Positions 33,925 to 43,577 are shown, counted from the stretch's first letter. The stretch: DNA of 64,000 nt from an uncultured Thermococci archaeon (GCA_964549615.1 CAZJVP010000076.1:1-64000), one strand, 5' to 3'. Program-made: numbers and translations. The notes: generated by a model from the letters alone, not told the origin.

Positions 33925-34272
33925 TCGAAGACGGTTTTCTGACCGCACCAGATAAATGGATGCGGCATTCTCCTAGGCGTGTCCAGGTGGGTTCGGCCGG
34001 CTGCCTTGCCGTTGCACATCCGATCTCCCTGCAAGCGTTGCAAAGGAGGCCGATCAACGGGTGCAGCGCCCCCGAGCTTGCCGGCGCAACTGAGGCTGCT
34101 AACCATAGGCAGCGTAGAAGGCGCTGCGCATGCAGGCCGGGCGCGCCCGGGTCCTTGGCCATGTGTGGCGGTGCGAGGCGGCCTATCGCCTTGCCTATCC
34201 GCATGGGAGCGGCTTTGCGATCGCTACACGACCAGGCGAGAGATATTAATTGCAGCTTCCTTCGTCTGGCCC

Positions 34273-36216
34273 GTGTCGATTGCCCGTGTCTTCGCCATCG
34301 CCCTATTTGCTCTGACGCTAAGCGCCGCTGCATTGGTCGCTTGGATGCGTTGGAGGTGCAGAAGGCAGGTGAGAAGGGCGGTTCTCATCATCCTGCCCAT
34401 CCTGGCGCTGGGAGAGTTTTTTGCTCTGTACCCGATCCCGCTCCTCCCCCACAACCCCGCCGTGGCGGCCGAGGGACGGACCTATGGGCCTCGCCCTGGT
34501 TTTCCGGTCGTCCTGGTCATGGGCGAGACGGCGGATGCTAAGACCTTCCGCCAAGCCGACTGGAGCGGCGCATGGGCCAACACGCTTGTACAGGAGATTT
34601 CTGGTTGCTCCGTGATCTCCGTTTCCCGCGTGGACGACGATCTTCTCCAGGATACTAGCCTCTTGGTCTTGTCAAGAAGTGCGTCTGGTCAACTTGCTGG
34701 GACTCAAGTGGCGAGCCTGGAGAAGTGGGTCATGCGCGGCGGGTTGGCGATAGTGGAGCAGCAATCGAACACGCTGTCGAACCTGACGGGGGTGAGTGTG
34801 GCAGGGGTTGGAGAGGCGTGGTCGCCTGCGAGGGTGACCAAGGTGGCAGGAAGCGCCCAAGAGTGGGCGGACCTAACGCTGATGCCTCTCGTTACCTCCT
34901 GCATGACGTTGTCCAAGAGAGCCGATGATACGACCGTGGCGATGGAGATGGACGATCAGCCCGTCGTCCTGGTCAGACACATCGGTGAGGGAGCCGTTTG
35001 TACATACCTCTTCGACGTGGGCCAACAATTGACGGCCCTGCAGCAGGGCGTCCCCTCCAAGGGATTCCGGGTGGTGGACAAGAGGGGCGCCGGCGGCATC
35101 GTCGATGCGCCGGATCTCATCTGCAGCTCCGGCCCGTTGGATTGCAGCATTCCTTTCGCCGATGTCTTGGAGAGATGGATGGTTGGATTGTTGGAGGACA
35201 TCCGGGCGATTCCGCGGATGTGGTACTATCCGTATGATTATGACGGAGCTGTGGCCATCACGCACGACGAGGACTGGTTCGGCGATGCATCGAGTTTTGT
35301 AACCGAACACGAGAAGGCCAGTAACTACTCATCGACCTTCTTCATGATCGCGAGGGGTCCTCTGACCTCCCAAGGCCTTGACATCATGAGCGGCCTGGGA
35401 GCCGACATACAGATCCACTGGAACAGGGAGATGCTCAGATGGCGGGACAAAGCGGTGCGCAGATGGTTCGTGGTGTTCACTAGGGGCGATGGCAGCTTGA
35501 GGAAGCAGATCCGCGTACTGGAGGAGAAGCTTGGAGGCAAGGGCGAGGTGTCGCTGTGCAGAATTCACAGACTAAGCTGGGGAGGTCGGTACACTCGGCC
35601 ATACAGGATCATGGAAGCTGCGGGTGTGAAGCTCGACTCGACGTTGGGACCAGCTGGAAAGACCGGAAGGGGATACCTTTTCGGAACCGGCCTGCCGTTC
35701 CATCCCATAGACACCAACGGCAAATTGTTCTCCTTGTTGGAGGTTCCCTTCCAGATCCAAGCGAGGTATTCCGGGGTAGATCGCTCCTACATCGGTGACT
35801 TGCTTCGAAACAGCAGCGTGCGCTACCACGAGATCATCACCGCTCTGTACCACCCATCCGACTTGGTCGAGGGCTCGCCGGTGACGGAGGACTGGTACGT
35901 TTTCCACGAGCTTGCACGGCAAGAGAACCACTGGATGATTACCCTTTCGGATCTGGTTGGATGGTGGACCGCAAGGCAAGCAGTGGAAATAGGCAACGTT
36001 AAGTGGAACGGCACCTCCCTCAGTTACGATTGCGCGGCCACGCTGGATCGGATGGCGATCATTGTGCCCCTCTCACACAACGGTCTTGCGATCTCGTCCA
36101 TCTTCGTGGATTCAGGGCCGGCCCAGGCAACGAGAACGATTTCGCTGCAGGGAAGGCAGTACGTGTTGGTTCGGATCGACCAGGGCAGGCATTTCATCTC
36201 CGTCGTCTACCGATGA
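34273..36216 (+). CDS. Membrane-anchored polysaccharide-deacetylase-like (NodB/CE4) protein
   Basis: Two N-terminal TM segments; ITHDED, IQIHW, RIHRL, DSTLG, FGTGLPF, LLEVP, LYHP. The ORF is open from 33979; GTG 34273 chosen because it follows an AT-rich TATA-like stretch at ~34243. Confidence 0.6.
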   Translation: MSIARVFAIALFALTLSAAALVAWMRWRCRRQVRRAVLIILPILALGEFFALYPIPLLPHNPAVAAEGRTYGPRPGFPVVLVMGETADAKTFRQADWSGAWANTLVQEISGCSVISVSRVDDDLLQDTSLLVLSRSASGQLAGTQVASLEKWVMRGGLAIVEQQSNTLSNLTGVSVAGVGEAWSPARVTKVAGSAQEWADLTLMPLVTSCMTLSKRADDTTVAMEMDDQPVVLVRHIGEGAVCTYLFDVGQQLTALQQGVPSKGFRVVDKRGAGGIVDAPDLICSSGPLDCSIPFADVLERWMVGLLEDIRAIPRMWYYPYDYDGAVAITHDEDWFGDASSFVTEHEKASNYSSTFFMIARGPLTSQGLDIMSGLGADIQIHWNREMLRWRDKAVRRWFVVFTRGDGSLRKQIRVLEEKLGGKGEVSLCRIHRLSWGGRYTRPYRIMEAAGVKLDSTLGPAGKTGRGYLFGTGLPFHPIDTNGKLFSLLEVPFQIQARYSGVDRSYIGDLLRNSSVRYHEIITALYHPSDLVEGSPVTEDWYVFHELARQENHWMITLSDLVGWWTARQAVEIGNVKWNGTSLSYDCAATLDRMAIIVPLSHNGLAISSIFVDSGPAQATRTISLQGRQYVLVRIDQGRHFISVVYR

Positions 36217-36491: not shown

Positions 36492-36737
36492 ATGACGTCC
36501 CGGAAGTCGCGGCATAAGAAGTGGGGAAAGTACAAGAAGAGCGTGGGGCGCCAGAGAACCGTTTCCTGCGTTTTCTGCGGGCGCTCCGTGCCAAGGGGGA
36601 AGGCCACGCCCGTCGAGAGGGGTATGCGGTTGGGCGACCTAAGGTCTTTGGGCGTGAAGCGCGAGCAGGTAATGCTGCCGAGCTACAAGTACTATGCGTG
36701 CATAAGCTGCGCCAAGCATCGGAAGCTGATCAAGTAG
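36492..36737 (+). CDS. rps26e: Ribosomal protein eS26 (divergent)
   Basis: GR..TVSCVFCGRSVPRGKA...YACISCAKHRK zinc-ribbon pattern; TTTAAAT promoter at ~36448. Confidence 0.85.
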   Translation: MTSRKSRHKKWGKYKKSVGRQRTVSCVFCGRSVPRGKATPVERGMRLGDLRSLGVKREQVMLPSYKYYACISCAKHRKLIK

Positions 36738-37722
36738 CCTCTGCGGGGACTGGCTGCGCAGGTGCGGTGACTCCTGCGCACTTGGTGCACATGTTCTTCT
36801 CCTTTATGAAATGCTCCGGGCAGACGTAGAACCCGCAGGAGTTGCAGAACGTGCGGTGCCTGTCGCAGATGGGCTCCCTGCAAACCCTGCATCGGATCGT
36901 GATGGCCACCGAGTCGCAGAACTTGCACCTCAGGGCTCCCTTCTTCCTCTGCTCCAAGACCCTGGCTCTCTCTTGTGGGTTCACGAGATTCAGCGATGTC
37001 GAGTGCACGACCTTTACTAGCCCGCTCGGGGCTGTGGCCGTGACCTTGAACTTGACTCCCAGCGCTTCAACCTCTTCGCCGACGCGCACGGACTGACCGA
37101 CGATGTCCTCCTTCGCGAACTTCCGGAGGAGCTCGCAGGCCTTGTAGCTCAGGAAGGTTTGGGGCTCAAGGACCACGACCTTCGCATCTTCCAGGTCGGA
37201 CGTAGTCTTTTTGGACGCGCTCGTCATCCTGACCCTGATCCTCTTCGCCTTCCCCTTGGCAGCGCATTCGATGCACGTGTAACTGGCCTCGTCGTAGCAG
37301 TTCTCGCAGATGAACTTGCCGCAGACCAAGCAGTGAGCATTCCCAAGTCCAACGCCGCATATGGGGCATGTCAGGCACTCCTCACAGTAGCCTGCAAGCG
37401 GGGCGTTGGGATGGGCGCACTTGTACCCAAATCTCCTTCCGCATTCGGGGCAGGTTTCCCGGCCGAACTCGACGCCGCATATCTCGCACTTTCCGCTGGC
37501 CAATCTCAGGCCGAGGCCTTTGCCCATGAAGTGGAGCAGCGCGAACAGTCCGCCCGAGACGGCACTCATGATGACGACCGCGAAGACCGTGTCGTTGAAG
37601 ACGCCCAGGAGCACGTAGAGCCTCCAGGCGATGCTGAGGCTCAGCACGAAGCCCACCAGGGCCAGGATGTTGCCCATGTAGCGGAAGACATCTGCGTAAC
37701 CTGTTCTTCTCATGGTTGCCAA
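36730..37722 (-). CDS. 2-TM protein with three Cys/His zinc-finger modules and a Cdc48-N-subdomain-2-like domain
   Basis: Two TM helices, repeated CxxC/CxxH clusters, and AKVVVLEP...GQSVRVGE...FKVTATAPSGLVKV; GGAGG RBS before TTG 37722. Confidence 0.75.
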   Translation of the reverse strand: MATMRRTGYADVFRYMGNILALVGFVLSLSIAWRLYVLLGVFNDTVFAVVIMSAVSGGLFALLHFMGKGLGLRLASGKCEICGVEFGRETCPECGRRFGYKCAHPNAPLAGYCEECLTCPICGVGLGNAHCLVCGKFICENCYDEASYTCIECAAKGKAKRIRVRMTSASKKTTSDLEDAKVVVLEPQTFLSYKACELLRKFAKEDIVGQSVRVGEEVEALGVKFKVTATAPSGLVKVVHSTSLNLVNPQERARVLEQRKKGALRCKFCDSVAITIRCRVCREPICDRHRTFCNSCGFYVCPEHFIKEKNMCTKCAGVTAPAQPVPAEAT

Positions 37723-37733
37723 GCGGGAACCTC

Positions 37734-38690
37734 CTAAGCTTCTATGGATACCTCCGTTGGCCTCATGACGCGAACTCTTCCGGGAGGATCGGTCTCCAGA
37801 ACCTTGAAAGGCATCTCGACGGCCTCTATGGCGTCCCCCGCTGCGAGTCTCTGGCCGATGAGCTCGTTCCTGACAAACCTGTTAAGGATCTTGATCATGG
37901 ATGCGCTTAGGTAGTGATCGCTCTTAAGGCGAACGGTCTTGGCGGGCTTGATGTCTGGCATCTGTATCTCCTCGTTCACGACCCCGCCGTCCCTCAGGTA
38001 TATGATCAGGTCGGCCTCGGCCGTTATCTTCGGGTCGTGCGTGCTGACCAGAAGGGTCGAGTGCTGCTCCTCCTGGAGCTCCTTCATGAGAGCCACGATC
38101 TCGAGGCCGGTCTTGGCGTCCAGGTTCGCGGTGGGTTCGTCGGCCAGTATGAGCGGCGGATTGAAGACCAGCGCCCGCGCGATGCCAACCCTCTGCTGCT
38201 CGCCGCCCGAAAGCTCTATTGGCCTGTGGTGCATTCGGTCTTTGAGTCCCACCCGCGTCAGGACCTCAACCGCCCGCTTCCGCCTGTCTTCCTTGTCCAC
38301 CCCCGCCATCTCCAGGGGCAGTTCAGTGTTCTCAAGCGCGGTGAGAAGCGGGACGAGATTCCAGGTTTGGTGGATGAACCCTATCGTCTCCTGCCTGAGG
38401 ATGTTGAGGAAGTCCCTGTCCCCCTTGGTGATGTTCAGCCCGCCGATGTAGACCTCCCCGCTCGTCGGCGAGTCGAGCCCGCTTATCATGTTCAGGAAGG
38501 TGGTTTTCCCTGATCCCGACGGCCCGATCATGACGGCGAAGGCCCCTCTCTCTATGCGGATGTTGACTCCCCTTAGGGCATGTACCTTAACCTCTCCTCC
38601 CGCGAGCTTGAAGGTCTTGGTGAGGTCCCGCGTGTCGACCATGAAGGGCCCGCGTATCTCTATGAGGTGCTTGCCGAGGTCAGTACTCAA
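37734..38690 (-). CDS. ABC ATPase (LolD/MacB family) with C-terminal Cdc48-N-subdomain-2-like extension
   Basis: GPSGSGKTT, LSGGEQQRVGIARAL, ILADEPTANLD, STHD; extra 69-aa C-terminal domain AKTVRL...FKVLETDPPGRVRV..TEV. Confidence 0.9.
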   Translation of the reverse strand: MSTDLGKHLIEIRGPFMVDTRDLTKTFKLAGGEVKVHALRGVNIRIERGAFAVMIGPSGSGKTTFLNMISGLDSPTSGEVYIGGLNITKGDRDFLNILRQETIGFIHQTWNLVPLLTALENTELPLEMAGVDKEDRRKRAVEVLTRVGLKDRMHHRPIELSGGEQQRVGIARALVFNPPLILADEPTANLDAKTGLEIVALMKELQEEQHSTLLVSTHDPKITAEADLIIYLRDGGVVNEEIQMPDIKPAKTVRLKSDHYLSASMIKILNRFVRNELIGQRLAAGDAIEAVEMPFKVLETDPPGRVRVMRPTEVSIEA

Positions 38691-40632
38691 GTCTAAACGC
38701 CTCCGCAGGAGCCATTCCCGACGCCCTTCGGGAGGGATACCAGGATGAGAGGTAGCTTATGCCGACGGCCAGGAATAGCCCGAGCCCCATCATGGACAGG
38801 ATCATGAGCCAGTTCAGACCCCGGAAGTTCCAGGTGAACAGGAACGGCAGCATCGCTGCGAAGAGTCCTATCAGAGCGCCTATCACCCCGCCTATGAAAC
38901 CTATGATGCTCGCCTCGACCCTGAACATCCTCCGTATGTGCTTTGGCTCCCCGCCGATGGCGATCATCGCTCCGATCTCCCCCGTTCTCTCGAGTACAGC
39001 CGTTATCATCGTGTTGAAGGTTCCGAGGGCACCGATCGCGATCGCGACGAGCGCCAGCGCGGTCTGGTAGGCCTCGACCACCACCTCACCTCCTGCTATC
39101 TGGCTCTTGATGGCCTGAGAGGTTATCATGAGTTGGACGAACAGGCCTATGCCTATGGCAATGCCTATGGTCGCAAGCAACGACCGGGTGAACCTTCGCA
39201 GCAGGTTCCTCACGGCCAGGGAGGTGTATATCCTCTTGCGAAGGAACTTCATCTTCACCAGCTTCTTGTAGATGGGGTTCATGTATTTCGTGACTATGCT
39301 TTCGGACGCTGCCTCCAGCCCGTACCTCATGGCTGTCAGCGGGTCGTAGAGGGCGGCTCTGAAAGCAGGGACTATGGAGGCTATGAGGGCCAACCCGACG
39401 GCCAGCATCAGGGGAGCTGCTACCAGGGAAACGGTGAATCGAAGGGAGATGAGGGTCGGGTACAGGCGGCTGGCCATGAACGCGATGGAAACGCCCAGCG
39501 CCCCGCCGATCAAACCGAGGATGATAGCCTGGATCATGAAGATGCTCATTATCCTGAATATGGTTGCGCCGAAACTCCCCATGATGCCTATGTCGCGGAC
39601 TCTCTCGTAGACTCGCGTGAACATCATGTTCATGATCACGACCGCGACCGCGATGAAGGAGATCACGATCGTGGTGGTGTGCGCGAGGCGGGTGCTCCCC
39701 ATGGTCCCTGCCCCTGTCGGCGTGATGAAGTACGGAGCAACCTCGGCCATCTTGCGTAGCGGCACGATCACGTTGTTAATGATGTCGATGCCGCTCACGC
39801 CCTCTTGGTAGCGCACGTATATGCGCGAGACGGTGTCCGGTTCCATCGCGAACAACCGCTCTGCGTCCTTGCGGTGTATGAGGATGGTGTTCCCTGACCA
39901 GGCTTCCTCTGGCCTACCCAGCCGGTCCAGCGCTGGGTCGTCCAGCGTCTTGAACAGGCCAACCACCCTCAACGTGATGGTGCCATGGGTCGCTCCGCCG
40001 GTGGTCCCGCGCTTGGCAATCATCCCGGGGCGCAAGGTTATGTTGTCCCCAACGCCTATGACCCCTATCCCGTACTTCTGGAACTGTTCATGGTAGTACT
40101 CGGCCATGTCCACGCCTATCAAACACTCGCCCGGCTGGCTTATGTACGAGCCGTCGGTCACGAAGTCTCTGAGCCCCCTGCCGTCATCCGTAACGACCTT
40201 CCTCCACCACGCGTCCTCGGATTCGGGATCGATGCCGAATATGCTCAGCGGCCTCCCACGCATTCTCCTCTCAAGTGCCGTGAGTTTTTGGGCCACGGAT
40301 GTCCCATTCACATCAATGTAACCTCGAGGGTCCTCCGCGATGAACTCGGTTCGCGGGTTCACTATATCAACGCCCTTGAGATTTCTGATCTCATCAGCGC
40401 TGGAAATGGGGGTGTTAGGTTGCCGGAAGGAGTACAGGACCTTGGTGACGCTCTGCCGCTCGGCGGCGTACATCTGCAGATTCATGGCCGTCCCCACGGC
40501 GATCTCGAAGTTCTCTGCGAGCGGAAGGATGCATAGGAATGCCGATATCGCAAGCGTGATGCTGGCGACGGTCACCGAGGTTATCAGGAGTCGACGTCTC
40601 AGGTCCCGGATCGCGATGGAGAAGGAGCCCAT
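38680..40632 (-). CDS. ABC permease (FtsX/MacB family) with two TM repeats
   Basis: RDLRRR/RNLLRR amphipathic helices, VYERVRDIGIMGSFGA and VLERTGEIGAMIAIGG, PAFRAA/PSRRAS; start trimmed to ATG 40632 with GAGGTG RBS. Confidence 0.88.
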   Translation of the reverse strand: MGSFSIAIRDLRRRLLITSVTVASITLAISAFLCILPLAENFEIAVGTAMNLQMYAAERQSVTKVLYSFRQPNTPISSADEIRNLKGVDIVNPRTEFIAEDPRGYIDVNGTSVAQKLTALERRMRGRPLSIFGIDPESEDAWWRKVVTDDGRGLRDFVTDGSYISQPGECLIGVDMAEYYHEQFQKYGIGVIGVGDNITLRPGMIAKRGTTGGATHGTITLRVVGLFKTLDDPALDRLGRPEEAWSGNTILIHRKDAERLFAMEPDTVSRIYVRYQEGVSGIDIINNVIVPLRKMAEVAPYFITPTGAGTMGSTRLAHTTTIVISFIAVAVVIMNMMFTRVYERVRDIGIMGSFGATIFRIMSIFMIQAIILGLIGGALGVSIAFMASRLYPTLISLRFTVSLVAAPLMLAVGLALIASIVPAFRAALYDPLTAMRYGLEAASESIVTKYMNPIYKKLVKMKFLRKRIYTSLAVRNLLRRFTRSLLATIGIAIGIGLFVQLMITSQAIKSQIAGGEVVVEAYQTALALVAIAIGALGTFNTMITAVLERTGEIGAMIAIGGEPKHIRRMFRVEASIIGFIGGVIGALIGLFAAMLPFLFTWNFRGLNWLMILSMMGLGLFLAVGISYLSSWYPSRRASGMAPAEAFRLEY

Positions 40633-40903
40633 GCATGCACCTCGGCGTTGCCGAAAAGGAGACGATCCAAACCCGCTCGAAAAACTCATATAAATGTTTT
40701 CGGCGCGTTGGAAGAGGCAGAATACGCCGTCTTGTGGCCCGATCGTTGACGTGGTGTCTTGGATCCGATATCTGCGTGCAAAGCTTCCTCCAAAGGCGCC
40801 GAAACCGATCCTGGTGAAGGGACTAGGGGTCGTTTTCCGAGGCACCGTCCGCAGGCGAACCCGCGCCTCTACATTTTTCTTGGGTTCCGCCCAAAGGAGG
40901 TCG

Positions 40904-41638
40904 ATGGCCTCCTTTGTCGTGACGGACATCGCATTCATGCCAAATGGGGTCGAGGGCCTACGTCTCTGGTCCAGAAAGCAGACCGCAATTTTGCCTCTAG
41001 AAAGAGGAAGGACGATCTCGTTCAGGGTTTCAGGCCAGCCCACGGCCAGCCGGCCGAAGGACCGATGCGCCCTCTGCGATGGGTCTCTGTGCCTGAAGGC
41101 AAGGATGGATTGCACGGTCCCCCATGTTTTGTACCTTGCCCTTTTCGGCCGGGCAGCCAAGATCGGCGTCACCAGGGAATCGAGATACGAAAAGAGAATT
41201 AGGGAGCAGGGAGCACCGTTTGCATGTGTCGTGGCCAGGTTCGAAGATGGCCTGGAGGCCCGCAGGGCGGAGAGGGCCTACTCGGCTTGGGAGGGCGTTA
41301 GGCTCTCTGTCAGGTTCGAGGACAAAGTTGGCGCGATCGGAAAGGTACCGGACGTGTTGGAGGCAAACCGGATAGTGAGGACTATCCCCCTTCCCGCCGT
41401 CCCGCAGCTGGAGGACATGAGGCACCTCTATCAGAACCCGGATCTTGACTCGATGGAGACTCCACTGATTCTTGACGGGGACGTGGTCAAGGGCAGGGTT
41501 GAGGACACGCGCGGTGAGGCGCTGTACTTCAGGCACCGGGACAACCTCTACGCGTACGATCTGAGGAGGACCCTGGGAAGGAGCCTTGGCCTCGGCGAAC
41601 ACAAGGTGGAGGCGCAGATGACGCTGAGCAACTTCTGA
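40904..41638 (+). CDS. DUF2797-family protein
   Basis: PHVLYLA...KIGVTR...RIREQGA...DGLEARRAE; ATG 40904 with GGAGG RBS. Confidence 0.75.
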   Translation: MASFVVTDIAFMPNGVEGLRLWSRKQTAILPLERGRTISFRVSGQPTASRPKDRCALCDGSLCLKARMDCTVPHVLYLALFGRAAKIGVTRESRYEKRIREQGAPFACVVARFEDGLEARRAERAYSAWEGVRLSVRFEDKVGAIGKVPDVLEANRIVRTIPLPAVPQLEDMRHLYQNPDLDSMETPLILDGDVVKGRVEDTRGEALYFRHRDNLYAYDLRRTLGRSLGLGEHKVEAQMTLSNF

Positions 41639-42535: not shown

Positions 42536-43577
42536 TGCGTTATCCGAAATTTATTTCCGCCCCCTGTTTGGGCCGGGTCGGTGGTCAAGCTAACCGACTC
42601 AAGGATTCGATGGATCATACGCCAGAAAGAGAAGGGAGAGATGACCGAGAAGAAGATCGCAGCTGTCTACGGCATCACCACAAGAAGACTACGACAACTA
42701 TGGACCCAGTACAGATCCACCGGACAGATGCCCACCCTATCCCAGCCAGGCAGGCCCACAACACCACGGGATCCCGGGGAAGAAGACCTGGTCCTGGAGG
42801 CGTACAAGAAGCACCACGTCTGCGCGGTTGTACTGGAACACCTCATCCAGAAGGATCACTCCACAAGGATTCCGCACAACCGGATCCACACAATCCTGAT
42901 CAAACATGGCTACGCCAAGAAGACCCCCCGCAAACAGAGAAAGCGCAGATGGGTCAGATACGAGAGAAAGCACTCCATGTCGCTCTGGCATCTTGACTGG
43001 TTTGCCCTTGGCAAGATCGCTCCATCCCTAGGGAGGTGGCTTCTGGTCGTGCAGGACGATGCGTCCAGGAGGGTTATGGGGTTTGGCGTCTTTGACCAGC
43101 CCACCGCTGCGGGCAGCGTCAAGGTGCTTGAGGATGCTATAGGGATGCATGGTGACCCGGATTCCGTGATCACGGATAAGGGTACACAGTTCTACGCTGT
43201 TGAGAGTGATGGTAGAAAGAAGGGTTTCAACGAGTTCGAGCTCTTCCTCCAGGTGCACGGCATCAGCCATATCCTGGCTAGGACCAGTCATCCCCAGACC
43301 AATGGCAAGATCGAGCGCTTCTTCCAGACCTTGGCAAGCCAGATGGATCACTACTCGTCTCTTGACGGTCTTGTTGAGTGGTATAATACTCGGAGGCCCC
43401 ATATGAGTCTGGGCATGGTCACACCTGAGGAGGCTTTCTGGCGCAGGCTGGGAGCTGAGAGGGTTCTCGGGAGGGCCAGCCATCTACTTTACCGGGAACT
43501 GGAACCTGCCGCGAAGTGACCTAGATGACCCACAAAAAGCACGCCCAGAAAAGAGGAAATAATTATGGGATAACACA
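42536..43577 (+). mobile_element. IS481-family insertion sequence (1042 bp)
   Basis: 23-bp imperfect terminal IRs (TGCGTTATCCGAAATTTATTTCC at 42536-42558; reverse complement of 43555-43577 is TGTGTTATCCCATAATTATTTCC), 15-bp flanking direct repeat, single DDE transposase. Confidence 0.92.
42581..43519 (+). CDS. IS481-family DDE transposase
   Basis: N-terminal HTH; RYER.HSMSLWHLD, DDASR, TDKGTQF, HPQTNGKIERF, WYN..RPHMSL...TP. Confidence 0.93.
   Translation: MVKLTDSRIRWIIRQKEKGEMTEKKIAAVYGITTRRLRQLWTQYRSTGQMPTLSQPGRPTTPRDPGEEDLVLEAYKKHHVCAVVLEHLIQKDHSTRIPHNRIHTILIKHGYAKKTPRKQRKRRWVRYERKHSMSLWHLDWFALGKIAPSLGRWLLVVQDDASRRVMGFGVFDQPTAAGSVKVLEDAIGMHGDPDSVITDKGTQFYAVESDGRKKGFNEFELFLQVHGISHILARTSHPQTNGKIERFFQTLASQMDHYSSLDGLVEWYNTRRPHMSLGMVTPEEAFWRRLGAERVLGRASHLLYRELEPAAK

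Follow-up and report, generated by a model that had tools for sequence, protein, structure and literature searches.

A type VII ABC operon of an uncultured archaeon whose ATPase and membrane zinc-finger protein share a Cdc48-type beta-clam domain

Why would the motor of a membrane machine and the membrane protein encoded next to it carry the same small domain? The question is raised by a 64,000-nucleotide stretch of DNA from an uncultured Thermococci archaeon (GCA_964549615.1, CAZJVP010000076.1:1-64000), which is called the window here. In it, an ATP-binding cassette (ABC) ATPase and a membrane multi-zinc-finger protein are encoded together with an FtsX/MacB-type permease, and both contain a beta-clam domain. 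The two domains are homologous to each other and to the C-lobe of the Cdc48/VAT N-domain. On balance, we lean towards the view that the zinc-finger protein is a dedicated cytoplasmic subunit, docked onto the ATPase through this pair of clams. The three genes and their domains are as follows, with the basis of each entry in brackets.

38680..40632, minus strand: duplicated FtsX/MacB-type permease, 650 amino acids (aa) (start at 40632, as in orthologues)
37734..38690, minus strand: ABC ATPase of the LolD/MacB/DevA/FtsE type, 318 aa (Pfam ABC_tran)
37737..37958, minus strand: C-terminal beta-clam of the ATPase, CDC48_2-like, residues 245-318 (AlphaFold2 (AF2), Foldseek, VIA, hhalign)
36730..37722, minus strand: membrane multi-zinc-finger protein, 330 aa (open reading frame (ORF) list)
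37516..37698, minus strand: N-terminal transmembrane (TM) hairpin of the zinc-finger protein, residues 9-69 (AF2 helices and hydropathy)
37264..37488, minus strand: N-terminal zinc module of the zinc-finger protein, residues 79-153 (cysteine map, invariant columns)
36979..37197, minus strand: internal beta-clam of the zinc-finger protein, CDC48_2-like, residues 176-248 (BLASTP, AF2, Foldseek)
36778..36927, minus strand: C-terminal zinc module of the zinc-finger protein, residues 266-315 (Cys/His map)

The permease, ATPase and zinc-finger genes follow one another in that order, head to tail, on the minus strand. The permease stop and the ATPase start overlap by 11 nt (38680-38690), and a gap of 11 nt (37723-37733) separates the ATPase stop from the start of the zinc-finger gene. 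A preliminary description of the locus had called the genes tightly coupled on the basis of these two values, and both were confirmed from the ORF coordinates. The permease ORF is listed as 38680-41172; its real start is at 40632 (MGSFS...), and the same start is found in the related loci L002 and L004.

The last 88 residues of the ATPase were compared with the zinc-finger protein by BLASTP. Residues 246-316 of the ATPase aligned with residues 176-246 of its neighbour without gaps, with 23 of 71 positions identical, 62% positives and an E value of 6e-14. The similarity is far above chance for one comparison, and it agrees with a manual count of 22 gap-free identities in 68 made earlier. The four related loci showed the pairing as well; ten copies, taken from them and from the window, could be aligned, and eight positions were invariant. 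Among relatives, both proteins were conserved over their full length. Relatives of the ATPase (n = 10) were 77-92% identical over the domain, and those of the zinc-finger protein (n = 12) 71-90%. A precomputed PF02933 match was present in none of the 10 related ATPases, and a match to any Pfam family in none of the 12 zinc-finger relatives. This indicates that the architecture is invisible to public annotation.

The domain had been likened to CDC48_2, the second subdomain of the Cdc48/p97/VAT N-domain, and several lines of evidence bore this out. The Pfam CDC48_2 model scored 17.2 and 16.3 bits on the whole window proteins and 21.2 bits on the ATPase domain alone, against a cut-off of 22.4. 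Eight of the ten copies matched CDC48_2 at E<=1, and the sole other family gave one match (E 0.16). When CDC48_2 matches were ranked within the genome, the two copies came third and fourth, after two true Cdc48 proteins. A profile of the ten copies was then run against 1.84 billion protein representatives and found only 25 proteins at E<=1e-3. Pfam scans covered 21 of them, leaving out the two representatives of the query families and two giant repeat proteins. Three of the 21 (P0034, P0038 and P0044) had CDC48_N together with CDC48_2, above the cut-offs, and were matched in the CDC48_2 part; three others had CDC48_2 alone, above the Pfam cut-off. The true Cdc48 of a related genome was also matched by the profile (E 2.6e-7). 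The matches to P0026 and P0027 (2558 and 2163 aa; 8-9 partial stretches) and to the repeat proteins P0042 and P0045 were set aside as apparent chance repeat matches.

Profile-profile comparison gave the same answer. An alignment of 20 ABC and zinc-finger copies with no Pfam-confirmed CDC48_2 rows (A4) was compared by hhalign with an alignment of six true CDC48_2 domains (A7), which included the Cdc48 of the same genome and that of a relative. The match had a probability of 98.5% and an E value of 2.2e-15 over 73 columns. The C-terminal pattern F.V..T.P.G.V.V...T is common to the copies and the genome's own Cdc48. A sequence search of the PDB with the ten-copy profile gave a designed helical repeat as its best match (E 0.032) and no Cdc48 entry, so the link to CDC48_2 needed profile-profile and fold comparison. 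Judged by sequence, both copies are divergent CDC48_2 homologues that lie outside Pfam's operational membership rule. The zinc-finger protein matched neither CDC48_N nor any AAA family in Pfam. AAA-named Pfam matches to the ATPase fell only on the ABC P-loop and under their cut-offs, and there was no CDC48_N double-psi barrel, the N-lobe of the Cdc48 N-domain.

The fold of the domain was examined with AF2. The model of the ATPase clam, built on A4, had a predicted local distance difference test score (pLDDT) of 94.3 and a predicted template modelling score of 0.81. Among the first 50 rows listed by Foldseek, all were VAT-N, p97/Cdc48 N, PEX1 N, PH1500-N, MSMEG_0858 or SPATA5 (TMq 0.60-0.79). 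The VIA fold search, which is independent of Foldseek, gave 18 rows with Z 6.4-11.5, all of them C-lobes of Cdc48-type N-domains (MSMEG_0858, Sec18p, PEX1, NSF, UFD1, CDC48A-N, VAT-N, PH1500-N, Pex6 and DEPDC5-type), and the next row had a Z of 3.7. The top match was MSMEG_0858 (Z 11.5, root-mean-square deviation (rmsd) 1.9 over 70 residues); Sec18p and PEX1 reached 9.1, plant CDC48A-N 8.3-8.4 and VAT-N 8.1. The AF2 model of the full zinc-finger protein had a pLDDT of 65.7 overall and about 80 in the clam, and Foldseek placed PH1500-N first (26% identity, E 5.1e-4) and p97/Cdc48 N next. Both copies have the beta-clam fold, homologous to the C-lobe of the Cdc48/VAT N-domain. The common ABC appendages TOBE, NIL and AbrB, which the preliminary description had named as what the domain might turn out to be instead, were found neither among the Pfam matches at E<=1 nor in the Foldseek and VIA lists; absence from such lists does not exclude a family, and these three are unlikely because the CDC48_2 assignment is positive.

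The order permease, ATPase, zinc-finger gene on one strand was kept at all four related loci. At one of them, the zinc-finger partner has only 37% identity and the GC content is 32%. The window's own genome (assembly of 3.2 Mb, 99% complete) holds a second, paralogous trio on contig C104 (L010:3358-7639, plus strand), which is called system B. It consists of a 792-aa permease, a 347-aa ATPase with a clam and a 275-aa partner, so that both clam copies are present. The system B partner has a Gly-rich N-terminus and a TM anchor, shares the first zinc module and ends in a clam; it lacks the second zinc module. In all five Hadarchaeota genomes searched, the window's included, at least four clam copies were found at E<=1e-5, and the four best copies of each genome formed two pairs 0.7-0.9 kb apart. 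The second trio was found in each of the four other genomes, of which the most distant shares the three genes only. A fifth match of the copy profile in that genome fell on its true Cdc48, and two true Cdc48 homologues are encoded elsewhere in the window's genome. Synteny beyond the window, which the preliminary description had singled out for checking, therefore holds at all four loci and for both trios in all five genomes.

In one protein, the two partners are joined in a single chain. P0025 (711 aa; L012:4036-6183, plus strand) reads, from its N-terminus, ATPase, clam, TM hairpin, zinc module, clam, zinc module and two TM segments. Its cluster has two members, and it was seen in two sources and on 4 contigs. 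By the Rosetta-stone argument, this fusion suggests that the ATPase and its partner act together at 1:1.

Near the fusion gene are those for a tyrosine integrase, an AAA_25 protein and a CDC48_N protein that stands alone, so the fusion is possibly carried by a mobile element. The CDC48_N protein (L012:10488-10973, minus strand; 160 aa, 48.4 bits) is a double-psi barrel encoded 4.3 kb from the fusion on the opposite strand, and it corresponds to the other half of a Cdc48 N-domain. In other archaea, the clam occurs alone or fused to a VWA domain (P0028, P0032 and P0043). In P0043, an N-terminal CDC48_2-like domain (21.8 bits), another free-standing clam, is fused to a VWA domain, and the members of its cluster in NCBI are VWA domain-containing proteins of Thermoplasmatota or Thermoplasmatales archaea.

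What kind of machine do the permease and the ATPase form? The permease matched Pfam FtsX in two stretches (89.9 bits) and MacB_PCD at 23.9 bits, under the cut-off of 27. Its top NCBIfam matches were MacB, ADOP and LolCE, each under its cut-off (LolCE 55.1 against 362.45). Hydropathy predicted eight TM segments. An extracytoplasmic domain of about 280 residues (about 39-319) follows TM1, and the second half of the chain has a loop of about 20 residues at that place. The ATPase scored 110.9 bits with Pfam ABC_tran. Its top NCBIfam matches were LolD (2e-62), MacB (2.5e-62), DevA and FtsE, in a range from 2e-62 to 8e-56, and it missed the equivalog cut-offs by far (LolD 210.6 against 307.75, MacB 211.1 against 966, FtsE 189.1 against 264.85). 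The N-terminus is conserved throughout in 10 relatives. GPSGSGKTT, LSGGEQQR and ILADEPT are legible in the alignment with relatives as the Walker A, signature and Walker B motifs. With an FtsX-type module that has an extracytoplasmic domain after TM1, and an ATPase of the LolD/MacB/FtsE type with intact motifs, the two proteins are a type VII (MacB/FtsX-fold) ABC system whose permease is duplicated and asymmetric.

The zinc-finger protein begins with two helices, at residues 9-39 and 44-69 in the AF2 model (pLDDT about 80) and at 19-37 and 45-63 by hydropathy. Arg and Lys flank both ends of this hairpin. From these charges we infer that the helices are a hairpin anchor and that both ends and all following domains probably lie in the cytoplasm, a location that suits zinc sites. 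The N-terminal zinc module has seven CxxC pairs and C102, and it is also found in the system B protein. A helix lies between the clam (176-248) and the second Cys/His module (266-315). The latter (AF2 pLDDT 70-83) has no counterpart in the system B protein. Across 15 sequences, with identity down to 36%, the Cys/His ligands do not vary. Pfam gave no zinc-finger family above cut-off for either module: DZR matched the C-terminal one at 18.3 bits (cut-off 27.3), and relatives had weak matches to Prok-RING_2 (16.7 bits) and zf-B_box (18.0 bits), with an AF2 pLDDT of 43-83 in the zinc parts. NCBIfam had no family for the zinc-finger protein of either system, and an ESM Atlas look-up with the window's protein gave no usable match.

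A juxtamembrane motif of this protein was also noticed. FMGKGLGL (window 37507-37530, minus strand; residues 65-72) is invariant in 13 close relatives. It recalls the FxGxGxxL SHP box, which binds the Cdc48 C-lobe. As a general mechanism this was rejected, since FMGKGLGL does not recur in the distant system A protein (L004, P0024), the system B protein or the fusion.

Do the two clams bind each other? Residues 236-318 of the ATPase and 165-258 of the zinc-finger protein were modelled as a complex, each with its own alignment. All three runs gave the model a score of 0.83; the best of three controls reached 0.02. Contact agreement between runs was at least 97%, and the partner pLDDT was at least 86. 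The predicted interface is pseudo-symmetric, using equivalent positions with an offset of 70. The predicted contacts are residues 259-260, 262-265, 268-269, 272 and 291-293 of the ATPase and residues 189-195, 198-199, 202, 206 and 221-223 of the zinc-finger protein, and they include the (F/Y)LS motif marked in the preliminary description. Invariant in the family among them are M265, L269, F272, V291 and M293 of the ATPase, and F190, S192, Y193, A195, L198, L199 and F202 of the zinc-finger protein. The model supports binding of the two copies as a pseudo-two-fold heterodimer. The docking of the two copies proposed in the preliminary description is thus backed by the gap between the model and its controls, while a model of this kind does not demonstrate binding.

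We propose that the three genes would give one membrane machine, made of the duplicated 8-TM permease and two copies of the LolD/MacB-type ATPase, with the hairpin-anchored cytoplasmic multi-zinc-finger protein as a dedicated accessory subunit. Each ATPase ends in a beta-clam of about 74 residues, and the zinc-finger protein carries the paralogous copy. The clams would pair through the hydrophobic face of a single helix and a neighbouring strand (H259-F272 and V291-M293 of the ATPase; T189-D206 and L221-V223 of the zinc-finger protein), and this heterodimer would tie the zinc-finger scaffold to the motor. The clam comes immediately after the nucleotide-binding domain, so that the zinc-finger protein would be moved or released as the ATPase dimer opens and closes; coupling in the other direction is also possible. 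The zinc-finger partner would then most likely have a regulatory or adaptor role, either regulating the motor or passing on the motor's state to cytoplasmic proteins bound by the zinc modules. A bolder form of the idea is possible, if doubtful: the clam pair would be a dedicated plug-and-socket by which a type VII ABC mechanotransmitter drives a membrane-tethered cytoplasmic zinc-finger scaffold, so that force or signal passes inward as well as outward.

Several observations weigh against docking of the zinc-finger protein onto a type VII machine through its clam. Neither copy reaches the gathering cut-off of Pfam CDC48_2 (22.4 bits). The complex score expresses the confidence of the model in its own prediction, and with the custom alignments used here its calibration, in which 58 of 80 solved complexes and 2 of 110 mismatched pairs reached the 0.83 mark, holds only roughly. 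Homology of the domains and pseudo-symmetry of the interface mean that homodimers of the ATPase or of the zinc-finger protein could form through the same surface. At the fusion locus, no FtsX permease was found within 12.2 kb (best tblastn E 0.51); the ATPase-zinc-finger pair may work without an FtsX permease or with one encoded elsewhere, and the conserved core is the pair of ATPase and partner. The membrane anchor of the zinc-finger family is N-terminal, C-terminal, at both ends or absent, which speaks against a specific contact between its TM segments and the permease. As the zinc modules have no family match, any output function is a guess.

Three other explanations were considered. In the first, the clams do not bind each other and are independent peptide or adaptor modules that share a third partner, or a linear motif of a substrate. 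Solved members of the fold do bind adaptor motifs (the titles of the PDB matches name SHP-box and Ufd1 complexes with the p97/CDC48 N-domain), and the solitary and VWA-fused clams of other archaea (P0028, P0032 and P0043) fit such a use. We consider this explanation unlikely, given the direct heterodimer model with its score of 0.83 against 0.02 in the controls. Distant loci have only the three genes in common, which leaves no conserved neighbour as a candidate third partner. Most adaptor binding in Cdc48 also requires the N-lobe, which is missing here.

In the second, the ATPase clams homodimerise under the dimer of nucleotide-binding domains, in the manner of the MalK and MetN C-domains, and the zinc-finger clams do so separately, their co-occurrence reflecting shared ancestry. 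ABC ATPases act as dimers, and a pseudo-symmetric interface of equivalent residues makes a homodimer geometrically plausible. In a tree of 28 domain copies, those of the ATPases and those of the zinc-finger proteins fell into separate old groups with weak support (85/86); 14 of its 25 inner branches did not resolve, and no order of events was drawn from it. Separate homodimers nevertheless seem rather unlikely to us, because strict co-occurrence in two trios in five of five genomes, together with a single-chain fusion, is hard to explain without joint function, and the hydrophobic contact residues are conserved in both partners. The third explanation, that the domains recruit Cdc48/VAT or the proteasome and the ABC system hands extracted membrane proteins to an unfoldase in quality control resembling endoplasmic-reticulum-associated degradation, has in its favour the two true Cdc48 homologues of the genome and the homology of the domain to part of the substrate- and adaptor-binding N-domain of Cdc48, and it is highly improbable, since a part-copy of Cdc48's own N-domain is no known Cdc48-binding element and no Cdc48, proteasome or ubiquitin-like gene adjoins any trio examined.

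How does docking through paired clams compare with what is known of related systems? Type VII ABC systems (MacB, LolCDE, FtsEX, YbbAP and BceAB) likewise have an FtsX-fold permease with a large extracytoplasmic domain after TM1, and the ATPase described here is nearest to LolD, MacB, DevA and FtsE. They are understood to pass ATP-driven movement to cell-envelope partners. Duplication of the permease in one chain is shared with the ADOP-type match and with YbbP-type permeases. Archaeal members of the type are common, and we know of no role assigned to them. Two abstracts describe type VII ABC systems as working with dedicated partner proteins, and the known partners that they name, EnvC, LolA, MacA-TolC and TesA, belong to cell-envelope systems (PMC12646458, PMC7668044). 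Unlike the established members, none of which is known to have a beta-clam on its ATPase or a cytoplasmic zinc-finger subunit, the system described here has both, and it is archaeal.

BceAB-BceS is a type VII ABC transporter with a partner that is anchored by a two-helix hairpin and has its functional part in the cytoplasm. The partner described here differs in that Pfam and NCBIfam found no kinase family or other known signalling domain in it, and contact is proposed through the ATPase appendage and not through membrane helices. The C-domains of ABC importer ATPases (TOBE in MalK, NIL in MetN) are extra domains behind the nucleotide-binding domain that can couple binding to the ATPase cycle. 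They have another fold, and they bind small ligands or soluble regulators, whereas the proposed partner of the clam is a paralogous domain of a membrane protein. The C-lobe of the Cdc48/p97/VAT N-domain (PF02933) has the same fold as the clam and is related to it at the profile level (98.5%); in Cdc48 it stands between an N-lobe and AAA+ domains, whereas here it has no N-lobe ahead and no AAA+ behind and sits on an ABC ATPase and a zinc-finger protein. The N-terminal domain of PH1500 from Pyrococcus horikoshii (2jv2, 2m3x, 4uzr) is another archaeal beta-clam outside an AAA+ ATPase, and it matched the ATPase clam with a VIA Z of 8.0 and an rmsd of 1.7 over 65 residues. PH1500 differs in being a soluble homohexamer on a beta-propeller, according to the entry title, and in having no ABC, zinc-finger or membrane part.

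A literature search of listings and abstract openings, which did not cover subscription journals, found no report of an ABC ATPase that bears a CDC48_2 or beta-clam domain, and none of the zinc-finger partner described here. The preliminary description had known of no such fusion in MacB/LolCDE/FtsEX systems, and this is consistent with the abstract-level search and with the lack of PF02933 annotation in all 10 ATPases. The data are consistent with novelty of the ATPase beta-clam, the matching zinc-finger subunit and their fusion, the type VII ABC machine itself being of a kind already known.

The surroundings of the trio were also inspected. The only sequencing runs that contain the stretch are labelled hot springs metagenome, and no RNA run was listed among them. 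The neighbours in the window are ribosomal protein S26e, a PAPS-reductase/PUA protein, DUF2797, a transposase and CTP synthase, and in the related loci compared they are not conserved alongside the trio. They give no clue to substrate or cellular role, and neither the neighbourhood nor the searches yielded anything that bears on membrane-protein extraction or quality control. The S26e-like gene (36492-36737, plus strand; 81 aa, 23.4 bits, under the cut-off of 27) is convergent with the zinc-finger gene, and their stop regions overlap by 8 nt (36730-36737). A 745-aa ORF (33979-36216, plus strand) has no Pfam family at E<=0.01. In locus L002, a PAPS-reductase/PUA/4Fe-4S gene comes directly after the zinc-finger gene, which indicates that in the window the 745-aa ORF and S26e separate two genes that adjoin each other elsewhere. 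The transposase (42581-43519, plus strand) has integrase core domains (rve 44.7 bits, rve_3 45.5 bits) and lies some 2 kb upstream of the operon, flanked by a PHP-like gene and CTP synthase. In the distant low-GC relative (L004:643-3296, plus strand), three genes precede the trio, and none of them is conserved in the window. Two encode paralogous proteins of 334-336 aa with hydrophobic N-termini that end in Cys and are followed by an acidic Asn/Thr-rich stretch, and these are possibly secreted or lipid-anchored; the third, a 152-aa protein with an acidic N-terminus, is encoded 55 nt upstream of the permease. The system B trio is flanked in family f1 by proteins of 268 and 422 aa, neither with a Pfam family. 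PADLOC gave generic ABC and FtsX matches only and none for the zinc-finger proteins, with no sign of a known defence system.

The presence of both trios in all five genomes searched suggests that their function is probably core for these organisms. The system offers a concrete interface with named residues that is open to testing. The C-lobe of the Cdc48 N-domain is found as an independent module in several archaeal architectures, namely on an ABC ATPase, in zinc-finger membrane proteins, in VWA proteins and standing alone, and this bears on the origin of the composite N-domain in AAA+ unfoldases. If the plug-and-socket proposal is true, the trio would represent a new class of device that couples an ABC motor to signalling or to the handling of membrane proteins, a device already present in the ancestor of Hadarchaeota and mobile in the form of the single-chain fusion, and the Cdc48 C-lobe would be an old, free-standing module for docking one protein onto another.

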